DNA of 64,000 nucleotides from positions 46,153-110,152 of the forward strand of contig JBFWJG010000001.1 in NCBI GenBank assembly GCA_050253335.1, written 5' to 3'. Below are positions 32,301 to 50,300 of the stretch, piece after piece. Every line of letters begins with the position of its first letter. Positions within the stretch are counted from its first letter, which is position 1. Made by a program: the position numbers. This DNA is from Deferribacterales bacterium. GTDB taxonomy: Bacteria > Chrysiogenota > Deferribacteres > Deferribacterales > Geovibrionaceae.

Positions 32301-35300
32301 GATGGTCCGGTTGATGCTTGCCTCAAGGCAATAGAACGCACAACGGGAATAGTCGGAAGGCTGAAAAGCTATAAAATAAATGCGCTCACTGCCGGAAAGG
32401 ATGCTCAGGGCGAGGTTGTGCTCACTGTTGAGTTTGAGAAATGCGGCTATGACGTAACAGGCAGAGGCTCAAACACGGACGTTGTAGTCGCCAGTGCCGA
32501 GGCGTATGTTTATGCAATGAACAGATACCTTTCCAGAAAAGATCAAAAGAAAGAGATGGAAGACAGAGGAATATAAGAGCAGGAAGCCCCGCACGGAAAA
32601 ATGCGGGGCTTTTTATTAAGTCCTATCAATTGTAATGCGCCCTGATTGATGATATATTTAATATAAAGATACAATGCTTTTTGCGGAGGGGCTCTATGAA
32701 GCTCAACACGATCATGGCTCTTATTATTTCATTGGTGGTTGCCTGCGGCATGGGGATCATTCTTGCGGTTAACTACACTATCACGAAAAACCAGATGTTT
32801 AACGCTGAGTTTGAACGCGCAAGAAGCTTCATTCTGGCGGCGGAAGGCGTTAGGGAATGGGGAGCACAGCAGCTCAAGGAAGGCGTTTTCGCCACTGATG
32901 AGATCAAGTCTGATGTTGATAAGTTTCTCTACACTGTGCCTGTCATAGGTGCGATAAGGGTTATGGAGTCAAAGTCCGAAGAGGCCGGACTGAAGTTCAA
33001 GGTGCCTAAATTCCAACCGAGAAACCCCAAAAACGCTCCGGATGCTAAAGAAGCGGAAGTTCTTCAGATGCTTGCCAAAAAAGATACCGGCTCCGGTAAT
33101 ACCCCTGAGCATATGTTTTATGATAAAGAAACCGGAATGCTCCGTTATTTTAAGGCAATAAGGCTCACTTCAGAGTGCGAGCTCTGCCACGGCGATCCGG
33201 CGACCTCCTCCGAGCTCTGGGGAACAAACGACGGAACAGACCCGACAGGCGTTAAGATGGAAAACTGGAGAGCAGGGGAGATACACGGGGCATTTGAGGT
33301 CTTTCTTCCCACTAACAACGCATATGCCATGCTGCGCAAAGGGCTTTACACTTATATAGGCATATTCATCCCCATTACAATCGCTCTGATACTGGTGATA
33401 TATGCCCTTAACAAAAAAATGATTTTCAGAAGGCTTGAGGATATGGAGCGGGTTTTCAGCACCATAGCTTCCGGCGATTATACTGTTAAAGTTAAAATAA
33501 AGAGAGATGACGAGGTAGGCAAACTTGGCGTGGCTGTGAACAAAATGGTTGACGGAACCAGCCGTGCGCTTTCTATGGTTGTGGACAGCATCACAAGCCT
33601 CGCCAGCACATCCGCTGAGCTTGCGAGCAACTCGGAAACCATTGCGAAAAACGCGCAGAATCAGGCGGAACAGTCCGTGAGCACTGCGTCTGCTGTTGAA
33701 GAGATAAGCGGCACTGTGGCTGAAGTGGCTGAAAATGCCGCAAATGTTTCTGACAGCACAAATAAAGCGAAGCAGAACGTTGTCCGCGGTTATTCTCTTG
33801 TTATGGAAACAAGGGATATGATGGAGAAAATTGCCTCTACCGTTGAGGATTCGGCAGTAACCGTGCGGAAACTCGGCGAATCCAGCGAGCAGATCGGCGC
33901 AATAGTGCAGGTTATTGACGATATAGCGGATCAGACAAACCTTCTCGCGCTTAATGCCGCAATTGAGGCCGCAAGAGCAGGGGAACACGGACGTGGATTT
34001 GCGGTTGTCGCAGATGAGGTGCGCAAGCTGGCGGAAAAAACAGTGAAGGCCACCAAGGAAATAGCTGATATGATCCAGAATATTCAGGCTGACACGGGCG
34101 GCGCTGTTATGGGAATGGCCGAAGGTGTTCAGCAGGTTGATAGCGGAAAGCAGAAAGCTGTGGAAGCAGGAGACGCGCTCGGCGTTATCAAGTCAAACAT
34201 GGAGGATGTAGCGGGAGGCGTCGGCCAGATTGCCCGCGCTACGGACGAACAGGCGAATGCAATGGAGCTCATGTCCAGAAGCATAGAGAGTATATCCGCT
34301 ATCTCCGGCGAGAACTCAAACGCGGCACACGAATCTGCGGAAGCAGTGGAACAGCTCAGCAGGCTTGCCTCGGAGCTTCAGAATATTGTTTCCAGATTCA
34401 AACTCTGAGAAAAATCAGGGGAGCCCTTAGGGCTCCCCTTTTTAAAGCCGAGCGAGATAATTTTTACTCAATGGTGAGATAATTTTTTCTTGAAGCGGTT
34501 TGATACTGTCAAAAACAGTTTGAAACACGAAAAAGGGCGGGATAAAAACCGCCCTTTTTCATTTAAATATTGTTCAAAAGTGTTATTGCGTTTTTGTCAT
34601 TCAAATCATACATTTTTTTCCACTCTGATAGCTGCCTAAAGCTAAGGGAAGGGAAACCTCTCAATATGTGTTCAACATCATATTCAAAATGGGCATATTT
34701 TTCTAAAAGTGCTTCCTGTGATGCCGAAAACATTTTTTCTTTTTTAGTTGCTATTAATGTGGTCATTAAAAGCTCGTTGTAAATCCAAGGAGAATATGTT
34801 GAGTAGTCATTTTCAACAGAGTTATCTGATTCAAGAAAAATAAAAACGGGTGTTTCCGAAATCATTTTAGTTAAAGCTGTAGACAAAATTATATTAATAT
34901 TATCTACACACCTTATTATTTGTTTTTTATTACTCATTGATCCAGTTAGTTCTTTAATCAAATTGTCTTTATATCCCCATACATCTGAATCAATAAATGT
35001 TGTTAAATCTAATTCTTTTGATAGCCAGTTTGAAAAATATTGTACTAAATCAACATCTGCATGGGAATGAGATAAAAAAATATCTGCATTTATTTGCGGA
35101 AACCAATCATTTTCAAGCCTAGCAACGTCAATCGTCTCATTTTTTAGAACATCGACCTTCCCTTTCAAATACTGCAAATATGGGCTATAGCTTCTTGTGC
35201 TTGCTTTTAGCCTTTTATCAAGTATTTCGCTAAATAAAAGATCTAGTCTTTTGGATGGTACAAACCTTTTAATTTCTGCTTCATTAATCTTAAACTTAAG

Positions 35301-47300: not shown

Positions 47301-50300
47301 TGAAGAGTTGAAAAGACTCGTACAGGAAGGACGGTTTAAATATAAAAGTATCTCCGTTAATGGCGGTCTGACCAAGTTGAAGCACTTAGGCATACTAGGT
47401 GCGGTTGCACCTGCTATGAGCGGCTTAGGGAGCATTCAGTTTAATAAATATGATAACGGCATTGTGATGTACTTTGCTGAAAAGGTCATGGAGGGAAATA
47501 TGACATTAGAAGAATTAGGTAAAATGGTTGAGCAACAGCAAGACGAAATCGAAAAATGCAGAAGGGACATTGACGCACTTATGAAGGCAATCGCCGCAGG
47601 CGGTACTTCATCGTCTAGCTTCGCAAGTTCCAGTCACTACGGTGTATCAGGGCAGAAAATGGCAAGTAAGCTTTAACCTGAAGCCGAAACAGGGGAAAGC
47701 CCCCTGTCTGCAACTAAGCTTGTACTGATGAGGCTGCGGTAAAAAATTTAAAAACGACCCGCAAAAAATTACAAAAAACACACATCTTCAAAAAATTCAA
47801 AAAAAATCCTGAAAACCAATCAAAACAGTTTTGACATTTAACACAAAAGGAGCGGAGTGTAAGACACCTGTTAAGAGATTTTTCTAAATTATCTCATCAT
47901 TAGCGGGTTCTTATCTTACACCCCGTCACCTTTTTGTTTGTTTATTTTACAGAAAAGCCCACTACGGCTTCGGGGGTGATCACTCTGAATGTGAATGATT
48001 CCGTAAGGAACAGGTGCACCTTTTCGGAATCGTGGTTGTGGTAGCCAACTGCAAAATCCTGCCCTATTGTGAGTTCAAGGTCGCCTTCCCTGTCAGCGAC
48101 GAGGAGAGCACCGTCAACCGCTTCCGAATAGACAACGGAACCTTTGATCTGCTGTTTGATCAGGTCTCCCAGTGTTCCGCCGGGGAAGAGCCGTGCGAGG
48201 TATTTCCACAGAGCGGGATTGACAACGAGATTTGCGCCGCCTGTAATCCCTTCCTTCATCATGCGTGTCTGAGCTTCGCTCACAGCGTCCACTATGCTGT
48301 CCTTGTCCAGAGTCATTGCAATTTTTGACTTGGCAGTAAGCTGGTTCAAGCCCACAATGCCGCTGTCCTTAAAACCGTTGAAAACAGCATTTTCCTCGAA
48401 TGCAGCAAGCTTTCTGGCCGCTTCGGTGAGGGGCTCCAGCTCAAGGTCTTTTGCGCCTCTGTCTATGTTGTCCAGCTCCCATATATCAAGGGAGAAATTG
48501 ACTCTCGCCTCAACAAGAGGAAGTATTTTGTGTACACCGAAGCATACCTCTCCTGCTTTCTGCTTAGCGGGCAGAGCAAGGCGCCCGAGGCTGACTGAAG
48601 TGTAATCTATGCCGTAAGGGCCTTCAACATCCGCAAACTTTCTGGCTGAAAGGTTAGCGGACAGGGTTTCTTTAGCGAGTGTGTTTATTTCTTTCCATGC
48701 TGCTGCGCTTATCGGTGCGAAATCTTTTCTGAGCAGATTCATATATTCCTCCTTGGTTATTTTTTCTTCAGGCTGCCGATTCCGAGCCCGCCGCTTTCGC
48801 CTGCCGCCGGTTCCGCGCCTTCGGCGGAAGCGCCTGAAAGAAATTCGTCTTCCACTTCTTTATATCCCTGCTGATAAAACTCTTCCTCCTGAGGATCAAG
48901 CTCCTTGAGCAGACGGAGAAATTCTCCGGCGTGCACCTTCTCCTCGTCGGCTATATCCATAAGAACCGCCTGAGCCAGCTTGTTGTCGGTGGATTCGGCA
49001 AGCTGCTGATAAAGCTGGATAGCTTCATATTCTGCCGCAACCATGAAACGGATGGCTCTGACAAGTTCCTGGTCTGTAAGTTTCCGGTCGTGTTTCAAAC
49101 CGCTGAAGGGATTTCCAAAATCGGGCATTTTATCCTCCTGTGCTCCTTTTTATTTAATAATACAATATAAACAGTGATATTTCGCAAGCATTACTCATGA
49201 TAATTAATATAAGATTAATTTTTGGAAAATACAAAGGATAATTTTTATTATTTAGATATTGAGTAAAAAAGGAGATGAGATGAAAACAGTTGAAAATAAA
49301 GCTGATGCCTAATAATATTCAGAAGATAAAATTAAGCTGAGAGGTGTCTCATGAAACTTACTGCTCCGAAATTTATTACCTGGCTTCTGGGTACATTTCT
49401 GGGTGTTCTGGGACTGCTTGTATATTTCGGCGTGGTGAGCATCAGCGTCATGACTTTCAGCCCCTTCTGGCTTGTTGTGGCAGGCTTCGGAATACTCGCC
49501 GCCGCGCCTCTCTTCTCCGGACTGTAAACCGTCCGCTATCCTGCATATCTTCATAAAATCCTCCTCAGTCCCCCTTTATTAAAGGGGGAAGTTATTGCCG
49601 TCAAAAGTAAAATGCTTTCTATGAACGCAAGTGAAACATTCGAAGTGAAGCCGAACAGATTCGGCGCGGGCGTGCGGGAAAACGGGCATGGTGCAGCGTT
49701 TCTGAACTGTCATAAATAAAAAAGCGGCTTCCCTGAAACTCAGGAAAGCCGCTTTGCTGTATCTTGCTAAAATATTCTGATTCTTATTTATGGCATGTGT
49801 TGCATGACTTTTTCACACGCTGTTTCGTGTGGCAGTCGATGCAGAGTTTGTCGTGGAAGTCGTTTTTCATGCCTTTTATTTCGCCTACTTCAAACTTCAG
49901 AGCGCCTGCTTCGGGATCAGCGTGGCATTCTGTACATGCCATCTTCTGAGCGTGTGCGAGGTGTTCAAAGTTTACTGCGGGCTTTGTGGGCGCGGGAACA
50001 TATTTCTCTGCTATGTTGATTATCTCCATAGCGGAGGCGATGTCCATGAGCTCAGCGGGGTTTCCTGCAAATGCGGGTTCAGCGGGTGCTTCCTCTGCTG
50101 CTGCAGCTTTCTGGACAACAGGAGCCGCGGTTTCTTCAACAGCGGGGGCTGTCCATGTGTCTATGGCTTCCGTGAGTTCAAGCGCTCTTGTGAAGAGGGC
50201 ATCAAGATAGTCAGGGTTGTGAACTCCTTTTGAGCCGTCCATTTCAGCTATTCTGATTATGCGTGCGTATTCGTTGAAGAGCGCGCGTTTGCCCATGGGC

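Follow-up and report, generated by a model that had tools for sequence, protein, structure and literature searches.

How might a Mu-like transposable element that carries defence genes, yet no genes for a virion, spread between cells? The question is raised by a compact element at positions 34443-47928 (13,486 bp) of the window, the whole stretch of 64,000 nucleotides that was analysed, with a GC content of 0.31-0.50 compared with about 0.52 in the flanks on either side.

Boundaries and ends of the element

The element is a discrete insertion with Mu-type ends, because it is flanked by a 6-bp target duplication and because a genome of the same genus (G029) retains the empty site, with both flanks adjacent and overlapping by seven bases. 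The boundary features are the following.

34437..34442, no strand: target duplication CCTTTT, left copy, within the terminator T-tract of the gene upstream
34443..34524, + strand: end B (left end), terminus TA; aligns to the contig C16 end with 92.5% identity (80 bp)
47819..47928, - strand: end A (right end), terminus ...GTCA; 90.9% identity over 110 bp to C9:45793-45902
47929..47934, no strand: target duplication CCTTTT, right copy, read from sequence

The survey's finding of a bounded, duplication-flanked Mu-type element of 13.5 kb is thereby borne out, as is the presence of the string CCTTTTT at both flanks. The 7-bp length assigned to the duplication was corrected to 6 bp, the ends T(34443)...A(47928) having been set by register with a second element of this genome, whose own duplication, ACAGGC, is unambiguously 6 bp, while the T-run leaves a duplication of 5-7 bp formally possible within the window. 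Two repeats had been described for each inverted end, which holds for end B, with two perfect copies of GAGATAATTT (34454-34463 and 34476-34485), whereas end A contains one perfect copy, AAATTATCTC (47886-47895), and one degenerate copy, AAGATAAGAA (47908-47917). Alignment revealed a third block in end B that is shared with the second element, GTCAAAA..TTTTGA, and placed TG/CA at both right ends and at the second element's left end, compared with TA at the left terminus of the small element, a terminus that could leave transposition crippled.

Gene content

The 25 ORFs of the element were scanned by Pfam and PHROG searches, and its features are listed below from left to right.

34563..35306, - strand: ThsB-like TIR protein (cargo); PADLOC ThsB 4.9e-40, phrog_33368 1e-25, weak Pfam match to TIR_2 (0.0045)
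35316..35777, - strand: PDC-M50A-like protein with three hydrophobic segments (cargo); PADLOC 2.3e-12, hydropathy scan
35801..36962, - strand: two ORFs of unknown function, one of 224 aa with weak anti-repressor/ORF6C likeness and one of 154 aa with one hydrophobic segment
36965..37405, - strand: CI-type repressor; Phage_CI_repr 2e-09, phrog_4 1e-09
37391..37419, + strand: promoter-like site TTGACA-17-TATTAT upstream of the early operon; 11/12 positions, consensus match only
37453..38750, + strand: early ORFs, first that of an 87-aa HTH protein at the Ner/Cro position, followed by three of unknown function (102, 80 and 95 aa); phrog_8503 2e-10, phrog_925
38752..39276, + strand: gpG/P2-S-type virion morphogenesis (Neck1/tail completion) homologue; Phage_tail_S 4.5e-19, phrog_26 1.5e-21
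39273..40745, + strand: 54-aa membrane peptide, 98-aa winged-helix protein and 332-aa protein; family searches, relatives, hydropathy scan
40750..42531, + strand: MuA-like DDE transposase; phrog_310 1e-51, 75% identity to the C9 copy
42509..43714, + strand: MuB-like AAA+ transposition protein; AAA_22 6.6e-20, phrog_296 6.4e-42
43716..44284, + strand: two ORFs without known function (121 and 68 aa), the first matching its counterpart on C9 at 45-48% identity
44281..44766, + strand: Gam; Phage_Mu_Gam 1.4e-34
44798..45085, + strand: Mor-family activator; Mor 4.9e-13
45082..45600, + strand: 172-aa ORF without family match in Pfam and PHROG searches
45582..45647, + strand: type II hammerhead ribozyme; Rfam RF02276, 52.8 bits (gathering score 37), E 1.2e-08
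45657..45818, + strand: 53-codon hydrophobic ORF after an AAGGAG site; sequence, hydropathy scan
45811..46371, + strand: GemA; GemA 3.7e-15, start taken from alignment to the C9 copy
46362..47069, + strand: 66-aa Cys-rich ORF and 168-aa helical orphan ORF, the latter overlapping the start of the protease gene
47059..47676, + strand: short prohead protease-scaffold homologue, 200-205 aa; phrog_976 3e-34

The reported content of repressor, MuA-like and MuB-like proteins, Gam, Mor and GemA is confirmed by these matches, and the reported absence of capsid, portal, terminase and tail genes holds across the 25 ORFs, among which the gpG/neck-type protein and the prohead protease gave the only structural matches in Pfam and PHROG. 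The early operon is densely packed, with ORF overlaps of 4-23 bp. The 332-aa protein adjoins MuA in all relatives, MuA itself is only about 27% identical to those of known transposable phages, and Mor precedes GemA, unlike in all relatives, where it follows. The GemA start is probably at 45811, and the ORF annotated as 71 aa more likely corresponds to the 53-codon ORF.

Both cargo genes and the hammerhead to the right of Mor stood as first described. The ThsB-like protein recalls Thoeris (ThsA and ThsB), although the 20 element proteins scanned with PADLOC gave no match to a ThsA model; the neighbouring gene encodes a small membrane protein with three segments, from the candidate family PDC-M50A. 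The hammerhead occupies the gap from the stop of the 172-aa ORF to the ribosome-binding site of the following ORF, and none was found in the Mu-like prophages of the same order that were compared, those of G059 and C9/C16.

A larger prophage in the same genome

The C9 fragment was considered as a second virion-less 13.5-kb element, and this candidate, which the survey had counted when speaking of such elements in the plural, was rejected, as this fragment forms one end of a larger prophage (C9:45793-52835 joined to C16:34059-41523). The two arms share the duplication ACAGGC and rebuild one terminator of a desulfoferrodoxin gene. Genes for Dam, tail-fibre assembly, tail-fibre and baseplate I/J/W/V homologues are located on the C16 arm, and because baseplate and tail-fibre genes lie there, C9/C16 is read as a larger Mu-like prophage and therefore as a candidate helper of the small element and not its sibling.

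Between the two elements, the noncoding ends show 92.5% identity over 80 bp on one side and 90.9% over 110 bp on the other, while the genes common to both show 70-75% DNA identity, with pN of 0.11-0.22 and pS of 0.64-0.84, the latter saturated. On these sequence comparisons, the ends match those of the co-resident prophage far better than neutral drift would allow. The middle of the larger prophage, the expected site of head genes, is absent from the assembly, where no contig-end overlaps were found, no tblastn matches to the sheath or head proteins of relatives were obtained and no profile matches to Phage_sheath_1 or Phage_Mu_F appeared; the larger prophage may therefore lack head genes, as its G046 relative seems to.

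The full Mu-like prophages of the order, in G059 (L031/L032) and on C9/C16, have a core in common with the small element, comprising the winged-helix protein, the 332-aa protein, MuA, MuB, (Gam), GemA and Mor, together with ends of the same type and the same divergent layout. They differ in that the interval from the repressor to end B holds modules for lysis, head and/or tail, which the small element lacks. The full relative in G059 extends over at least 32 kb, compared with 13.5 kb, a size ratio like that of satellite and helper in P4/P2 and SaPI/helper pairs.

The morphogenesis homologues

The neck/tail-completion homologue does lie in the early operon, as the survey stated, and is 26-33% identical to the gene adjoining the protease in RcapMu-type phages. 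The protease and gpG genes are neighbours in the head module of full phages, whereas neither was found in 11 related early operons, whose MuA proteins are 35-75% identical to that of the small element.

In an AlphaFold2 model, the short protease combines a protease domain with a single long helix and a C-terminal tail, and the closest folds named are those of capsid-assembly proteases (VZV protease, Z 9.7; T4 gp21, Z 8.7). No variation is seen in the alignment at H52, S97 and H109, the candidate catalytic residues. Of the best 150 homologues, 134 exceed 215 aa, and the alignment indicates that about 90 scaffold residues are absent while the C-terminal ...KL tail is retained. The protease thus looks as if it were working and its scaffold as if it were cut short. 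The same short form occurs in a 189-aa protein at 60% identity. The assignment as a prohead-protease homologue stands, but the resemblance once drawn to the protease of the resident GTA-like cluster is only family-level (25% identity in the alignment, E 1e-8) and the tie appears weak, the proteases of full Mu-like prophages being closer (33-47%).

Occurrence in other samples

Contigs, not reads, were compared for run X2, an independent metagenome from another study, in which contigs span 34626-47332 with 3 differences over 12.7 kb. The left flank of the element has no cover there, for the right flank the sole covering contig shows 159 differences and threefold depth, and a contig of 2,760 letters joins the last 58 bp of the element to 2.7 kb foreign to the window. 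A recent spread of the short form is argued here. In the source sample, depth is even, at 10.9 inside the element versus 9.8-12.2 outside, and therefore gives no sign of its replication there.

Known systems and possible explanations

The element resembles phage Mu in its MuA/MuB-type pair, Gam, Mor and GemA, in a repressor adjoining a divergent early promoter, in terminal repeats and in a short target duplication, although this is 6 bp long compared with the 5 bp of Mu. Its layout is also divergent, the early operon being directed toward one end, whereas late genes would read toward the other. With ends and the A and B genes but without virion genes, it is comparable to laboratory mini-Mu, which is engineered where this element is natural, and because of this combination it would need a packaging helper. 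Unlike Mu and mini-Mu, it brings its own protease-scaffold and gpG homologues.

Capsid-redirecting satellites, such as P4 (Sid), SaPI (CpmA/CpmB), PLE (TcaP) and PICI/cfPICI, are similar in size, at about one third of the helper's, in encoding a repressor and an activator of their own, in having few virion genes or none, in bringing along accessory or defence genes and in possessing a scaffold-type protein, here a candidate modifier of helper head assembly. The small element differs in integrating and replicating by transposition, not by integrase and replicon, and, compared with PICI, in lacking a small terminase gene and a PICI-type cos/pac module; the protein that might redirect capsids is here a protease-scaffold fusion of reduced length, and the element's satellite role is putative. 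About half of our confidence is given to the small element being a natural mini-Mu, a putative satellite-like hitcher on the particles of a Mu-like helper.

The main rival, which the survey had named as its own caveat, is a defective prophage that lost its whole late region in an internal deletion between repressor-proximal genes and the cargo adjoining end B, was kept for its defence cargo without adaptation to a helper, and may still transpose. It is a possible but less likely account. The late genes of full relatives sit exactly where the small element holds just the 154-aa and 224-aa ORFs and cargo, a single deletion would leave both ends and the duplication intact, and the larger prophage likewise bears a moron, the Dam methylase gene, adjoining end B in the position of the ThsB-like/PDC-M50A genes. 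The TA terminus and flat depth suit a decaying, silent element, and no family of small forms emerged, the only close relative in genomes, metagenomes and viromes being one short protease on a 1.2-kb contig. A deletion leaves unexplained, however, the gpG gene in the early operon and the short protease-scaffold after GemA, both absent from those 11 early operons; the ORFs are all intact and coupled, the short protease form recurs, and a near-identical short element occurs in run X2 without this genome's flanks. Moreover, a transposition-competent remnant with both ends would, beside a compatible prophage, act as a hitcher in practice.

An autonomous Mu-derived transposon that never enters virions, moving within or between replicons and transferred by conjugation or transformation, with the protease and gpG as decoys blocking the assembly of infecting Mu-like phages, is improbable. 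The A/B module and ends are complete and defence cargo is aboard, and a prophage-encoded assembly blocker has a precedent in Tab (PMC10884400), which blocks tail assembly and is encoded by Mu-like Pseudomonas prophages. Tab is likewise the gene of a Mu-like element acting on another phage's virion assembly, but it serves as an analogy for the decoy role only, with no sequence relation to the small element's proteins. Against such a transposon, Gam, Mor and GemA of the transposable-phage lytic programme are retained intact, an unpackaged burst of replicative transposition would be lethal to the cell and bring no gain, and the ends match those of the co-resident prophage far beyond neutral drift.

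Slightly less probable still is a hitcher on particles from the family-wide, vertically inherited GTA-like head gene clusters, its Mu-type protease-scaffold docking into that Mu-derived capsid: the C4 capsid gene (16/16 family genomes, 0/47 genomes of the order's other families, identity following phylogeny) and the C15 Mu-type portal (also 16/16) belong to the clusters that hold the sole head genes of this assembly, and the cluster protease falls in the same PHROG family (phrog_976, 5.7e-24), but the element's protease is closer to those of full Mu-like prophages, particle formation and DNA capacity of the cluster are putative, and GTAs package DNA with low specificity.

Under the reading as a natural mini-Mu, derepression would lead to replicative transposition by the element's own A and B proteins, and packaging from the Mu-type end would fall to a helper's particles, with the co-resident larger prophage, or one of its relatives, as the most likely helper, so that injection could be followed by transposition into a new chromosome. 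The gpG/neck-type protein and the shortened protease-scaffold may adapt or divert helper head assembly, perhaps toward a smaller head fitting about one third of a genome. Between transfers, the ThsB-like/PDC-M50A cargo may benefit the host; to pass these defence genes on, the small element probably relies on the larger, related prophage that shares its genome.

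Boundaries and insertion site

The compact Mu-like unit of the window (the small element) is delimited by a change in GC content, from about 0.52 in both flanks to 0.31-0.50 inside, roughly between window positions 34500 and 48000. Its bounds, 34443-47928 (13,486 bp), were set by register with a second Mu-like element of the same genome, the large prophage, whose arms lie on contigs C9 and C16. The left junction (end B) reads ...GGGCTCCCCTTTT in the flank followed by TAAAGCCGAGCGAGATAATTT... in the element, and the right junction (end A) reads ...CTTATCTTACACCCCGTCA followed by CCTTTTTGTTTG in the flank. 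The left flank is formed by the hairpin and T-tract that terminate the upstream gene (32681-34408). In a genome of the same genus (G029), the match to the left flank extends up to position 570167 and the match to the right flank begins at 570161; the two flanks are thus adjacent, and the small element is therefore an insertion with target duplication. This empty site, GGGCTCCCCTTTTATTTGTTTATTTTACTG, supplies the allele that the survey's finding had been without.

The target duplication of the small element is CCTTTT (6 bp), present in both flanks, and that of the large prophage is ACAGGC, an unambiguous 6 bp; Mu itself duplicates 5 bp. The large prophage has termini of the TG...CA form, and the small element ends in ...CA on the right and has TA on the left where the large prophage has TG. 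Blocks common to both ends of both elements are TGA, AAGATAA or GAGATAA, AATGGTGAGATAATTT and GTCAAAA..TTTTGA, with two to three shared motif blocks at both ends. Ends of the TA-TA form are mentioned, in one report on Leptospira prophages (PMC8705779), as untested candidates.

The gene upstream, encoding 575 aa, contains a stretch of its own (33944-34075) with matches of about 90-130 bp and 72-91% identity at more than 20 other places in this genome and with dozens of matches in each genome of the same genus, the likely explanation being a domain conserved among the members of a large family of paralogous genes.

Gene content

Twenty-five open reading frames (ORFs) of the small element were scanned against Pfam and PHROGs, and 20 of these also against PADLOC. 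The scans mostly bore out the gene list of the survey.

Genes of the small element (34443-47928), from end B to end A, with E-values in brackets
Minus strand, first from end B: ThsB-like TIR protein (4.9e-40)
Minus strand: PDC-M50A-like membrane protein with three hydrophobic segments (2.3e-12)
Minus strand, after the PDC-M50A-like gene: ORFs of 224 aa and 154 aa
Minus strand: CI-type repressor (2e-09)
Ahead of the plus-strand genes: promoter-like TTGACA-17-TATTAT, a consensus match
Plus strand, start of the early operon: helix-turn-helix protein and three small ORFs
38752-39276, plus strand: Phage_tail_S/gpG-type protein (4.5e-19; phrog_26, 'tail completion or Neck1', 1.5e-21)
Plus strand: membrane peptide, winged-helix protein and 332-aa conserved protein (the last at 39747-40745, phrog_4623)
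Plus strand: MuA-like DDE transposase (phrog_310, 1e-51)
Plus strand, adjacent to the MuA-like gene: MuB-like AAA+ partner (phrog_296, 6.4e-42; AAA_22, 6.6e-20)
Plus strand, between the MuB-like gene and Gam: two small ORFs
Plus strand: Gam (1.4e-34)
Plus strand: Mor (4.9e-13)
Plus strand, after Mor: 172-aa ORF
Plus strand, after the hammerhead: 53-codon hydrophobic ORF with an AAGGAG site
Plus strand: GemA (3.7e-15)
Plus strand, after GemA: Cys-rich 66-aa ORF and 168-aa orphan ORF
Plus strand, last: 205-aa 'head maturation protease' homologue (phrog_976, 3e-34)

The Pfam matches of the repressor, Gam, Mor and GemA exceed the gathering score, and the rve match of the MuA-like protein is weak (0.0047) and under the cut-off. 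By its transposition module, its regulators and its target duplication, the small element is a Mu-type transposable element. Structural matches among the 25 ORFs in Pfam and PHROGs are limited to the gpG-type protein and the short protease, with no match to capsid, portal, terminase, sheath, tube or fibre. The element is accordingly not a complete phage, lacking the terminase, portal, capsid and tail of one.

Alignment to the copy on C9 places the start of GemA most likely at 45811, and a 71-aa ORF read as a gene from a GTG start was rejected from the same comparison and the sequence. The 66-aa ORF (46362-46562), located after GemA and before the 168-aa ORF, encodes 11 cysteines; it matches no family, and the large prophage has no counterpart of it. 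A homologue search with the 168-aa ORF returned only itself, and nothing usable was found in the protein atlas for this or the 172-aa ORF. The 332-aa protein, encoded upstream of MuA, is conserved better than MuA across distant Mu-like prophages, with 61% identity over 157 aligned residues (33-189) to the G026 counterpart (MuA 27%) and 46% to that of G034 (MuA 26%).

As regards defence, the small element does not contain the pair of ThsB TIR protein and ThsA effector that constitutes Thoeris, since ThsA had no match among the 20 proteins scanned with PADLOC, a scan that gave no further defence match beyond weak ones to winged-helix proteins. A predicted type II hammerhead (RF02276), scoring 52.8 bits against a gathering score of 37 and covering model positions 1-66 of 66, occupies the interval from the stop codon of the 172-aa ORF to the AAGGAG site that precedes the 53-codon ORF. 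In this position, self-cleavage would cut the operon transcript between the Mor block and the block running from GemA to the protease. An Rfam scan of the C9 and C16 loci gave no match.

A larger Mu-like prophage in the same genome

Comparison of the small element with the whole assembly by blastn revealed a 70-75% identical stretch on C9 that runs to the contig end, and a match of the left end to C16 (80 bp, 92.5%). Inward of that end, C16 encodes a Dam methylase, a tail-fibre assembly protein, a 798-aa tail fibre and homologues of baseplate proteins I, J, W and V, all pointing towards the element end as far as the contig end. The last bases of the C16 flank and the first bases of the C9 flank are both ACAGGC, and the joined flanks rebuild a desulfoferrodoxin gene followed by its terminator hairpin; therefore C9:45793-52835 and C16:34059-41523 are the two arms of one element. 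The survey had reported two small elements, which is wrong, the C9 copy being an arm of a larger prophage with tail genes on C16; apart from this claim, its observation was largely right.

At least 14.5 kb of the large prophage is assembled and its middle is unassembled, no contig-end overlap at k = 21-127 bridging C9 and C16. Searches by tblastn with 101 ORFs of the G046 and G059 elements gave tail matches only on C16 and no sheath or head match, Phage_sheath_1 and Phage_Mu_F have no match in the genome, and the assembly contains no head region for the large prophage. GemA of the C9 copy (L001:2234-2790) is broken, by a frameshift or a sequencing error, into two ORFs (125 and 60 aa) whose products jointly match the intact 186-aa protein of the small element. 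Public contigs of 35,464 and 4,782 letters encode proteins with at least 90% identity to the MuA of the large prophage, and the longer of the two could be the complete helper genome.

Between the two elements, protein identity is 78% for the winged-helix protein, 62-66% for the 332-aa protein, 75% for MuA, 69% for MuB, 79-83% for Gam and 35-46% for Mor. Synonymous sites of the shared genes are saturated (pS 0.64-0.84) and pN is 0.11-0.22, so both lineages are old and have evolved under purifying selection. Against this saturation, the non-coding ends of the two elements are 91-92% identical; the termini have been held interchangeable either by strong constraint or by recent exchange. Interchangeable termini are to be expected if the machinery of one element acts on the other, and in Mu the packaging signal sits in an end.

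Family layout and relatives

Relatives of the MuA-like protein were found in 13 of the 68 genomes of the phylum, this one included, the best being 50% and 49% identical. All relatives share the early-operon order of winged-helix protein, 332-aa protein, MuA, MuB, (Gam), GemA, Mor and element end, and the G059 element carries, beyond its repressor, genes for endolysin, large terminase, portal, Mu F-type protein, a 422-aa protease, major head protein, neck protein, sheath, tape measure and baseplate. Therefore, the early operon runs out to one end and the late genes to the other, a layout that we take to be BcepMu-like. In the small element, the 154-aa and 224-aa ORFs and the defence cargo stand in place of the entire late region, with the cargo in the position that Dam has in the large prophage. 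In addition, Gam and GemA are separated by Mor, the 172-aa ORF and the hammerhead, and the 66-aa ORF, the 168-aa ORF and the protease are found where the relatives have Mor. No homologue of the protease or of the gpG-type protein was present in any of 11 related early operons.

Searches with MuA retrieved eight loci in genome contigs (35-42% identity), two in metagenome contigs (42-48%) and one in viral contigs, and in these three sets no family of small relatives was found. In viral contigs, the protease and the gpG homologue gave no locus and the two end motifs had no match. The C9 MuA and a baseplate protein of C16, used as queries, led to 85 viral loci, four of which contain a protease match; the two of these with the match less than 4 kb from MuB were rejected as short forms, their ORFs being full-length (385-392 aa).

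The element with the 50% identical MuA (G046:C10:1-29 kb, L029/L030) has a repressor, an amidase and five small ORFs, then sheath, tube, tape measure, baseplate and three fibre genes, and gave no match to terminase, portal, protease or capsid between repressor and tail genes. It appears to have tail genes and no head genes and may be a transposable tail-only (tailocin-like) element.

Protease and neck-type proteins

A HMMER search of 1.84 billion representatives yielded 3,787 relatives of the protease at E ≤ 0.001, and 134 of the best 150 of these are longer than 215 aa, compared with 205 aa in the small element. In an alignment of 16 sequences, H52 (the GHP histidine), S97 and H109, which would form the catalytic triad, are invariant and kept in the small-element protein. 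It also keeps the C-terminal ...KMASKL tail that ends most relatives, and about 90 alignment columns, corresponding to the scaffold part, are gone between the first helix and this tail. The closest protein, 60% identical and 189 aa long on a 1.2-kb contig, has the same short form.

The AlphaFold2 model (mean pLDDT 74.6) comprises a confident protease domain (9-113), a disordered linker, a long helix (150-182) and a short terminal helix. Foldseek matched it to herpesvirus assemblins, the best being that of HCMV (1nju; E 4e-3, probability 1.00), and VIA-align to the proteases of VZV (Z 9.7, rmsd 2.5, 106 aligned), T4 (gp21; Z 8.7, rmsd 3.6, 111 aligned) and HCMV (Z 7.2), with the next unrelated row at Z 4.6. 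In its family, its herpesvirus-protease-like fold and its conserved His/Ser/His residues, the protein is a Mu gpI-type prohead protease, and it does not have the full-length C-terminal scaffold part. Family, residues and modelled fold thus make it likely an active capsid-assembly protease joined to a shortened scaffold.

The small-element protease is 33-38% identical to the proteases (281-308 aa) of full Mu-like prophages within the phylum (E 1e-22 to 1e-28), and it matches those of the GTA-like head clusters at E 1e-8 to 1e-11 (25% identity for the copy of this genome, alignment A1); by sequence comparison it is, within the phylum, nearer to the former. In RcapMu and RcWaterboi, the genes for the gpG-type protein and the protease directly adjoin within the head module, and in the G034 prophage they are found near each other; those of the small element are 8 kb apart, both in non-late positions.

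The GTA-like clusters lie outside the window, one on C4 (16.6-25.2 kb, L007; protease, decoration protein, major capsid protein and about nine further ORFs) and one on C15 (8.9-12.8 kb, L010; small terminase, large terminase and short Mu-type portal). All 16 genomes of the family have both the capsid gene and the portal gene, and the capsid gene occurs in none of 47 genomes from elsewhere in the order; identity tracks phylogeny, and 14-30 kb separate the two loci in complete genomes. Together, they have the appearance of a GTA-like or domesticated head system passed on vertically. In the same bacterial family, full Mu-like prophages (G026:C1:590-610 kb, L079; G034:C10:66-86 kb, L080) have capsids 34-36% and portals 28-30% identical to those of the clusters, which hints at a descent of the family-wide clusters from the head module of a Mu-like phage.

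Occurrence in public metagenome runs

Comparisons with public runs rest on contigs, not reads. In X1, the likely source, one contig covers 34474-47893, and depth is 10.9 inside the small element against 9.8-12.2 outside, so that there is no sign of replication. In X2, an aquatic metagenome of another study, four contigs cover 34626-47332 with three differences in all at a depth of 5-11. The left flank (33000-33550) has no cover in this run, and the sole cover of the right flank is a contig with 159 differences and 10 gaps at a depth of 35. A 2,760-letter contig of X2 carries the last 58 bp of the small element without difference beside about 2.7 kb foreign to the window. Two wastewater runs of two further studies contain short identical pieces at a depth of 3-6. 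No RNA data set was among the public runs listed. As far as contigs show, the short form exists near-unchanged in another genomic background, which argues for recent horizontal movement of the 13.5-kb unit.

Nature of the element

Most virion genes are absent from the small element, and functions for its own regulation, integration and replication are kept, as is characteristic of a satellite; its gene content suggests that it works like one. The best-supported reading, plausible and in our judgement about evenly poised, is that of a natural mini-Mu or satellite-like hitcher. Such an element would be capable of self-repression, of transposition and, probably, of replication by means of its own A and B proteins, and would borrow its particles, the obvious helper being the co-resident larger prophage or a relative. 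With its 91-92% identical ends and its tail genes, the co-resident prophage is the candidate helper, with no head region in the assembly. Head assembly might be diverted by two candidate proteins, the shortened protease-scaffold with its kept C-terminal tail and the neck-type gpG homologue encoded in the early operon. The size of the small element, about one third of a full genome, gives the same ratio as that of P4 and the SaPIs.

The main rival is a deletion remnant of a Mu-like prophage, free of any adaptation to a helper. The weak points of the satellite reading are the head region of the helper missing from the assembly, the apparently headless G046 element, the TA at the left terminus and the lack of a family of small relatives in the contigs searched. 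Even a remnant would act as a hitcher if its ends worked and a compatible prophage were at hand, and what mainly separates the two readings is therefore whether the oddly placed morphogenesis genes have any effect.

A more far-reaching version of the satellite reading is put forward tentatively, as we consider it somewhat improbable as a whole. The small element would represent the first described satellite family that replicates and integrates by Mu-type transposition, mimicking helper ends for transposition and packaging, building or filling small heads (of the helper or even GTA-like) by means of the truncated protease-scaffold and the neck protein, and ferrying TIR-based defence between strains. 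To our knowledge, the known satellite families (P4-like, PICI, cfPICI and PLE) all use integrases and their own replicons, whereas the small element has Mu transposition machinery. No natural Mu-type satellite is described in the literature searched, which included a 2024 review of hitcher elements, covered subscription journals poorly and excluded supplements.

If true, a natural satellite on Mu transposition machinery would constitute a new way of hitch-hiking and would explain the persistence and spread of virion-less Mu-like 'remnants'. The truncated protease-scaffold would be a concrete and testable candidate for a capsid-size switch, and the element as a whole would provide a compact natural vehicle for defence genes.
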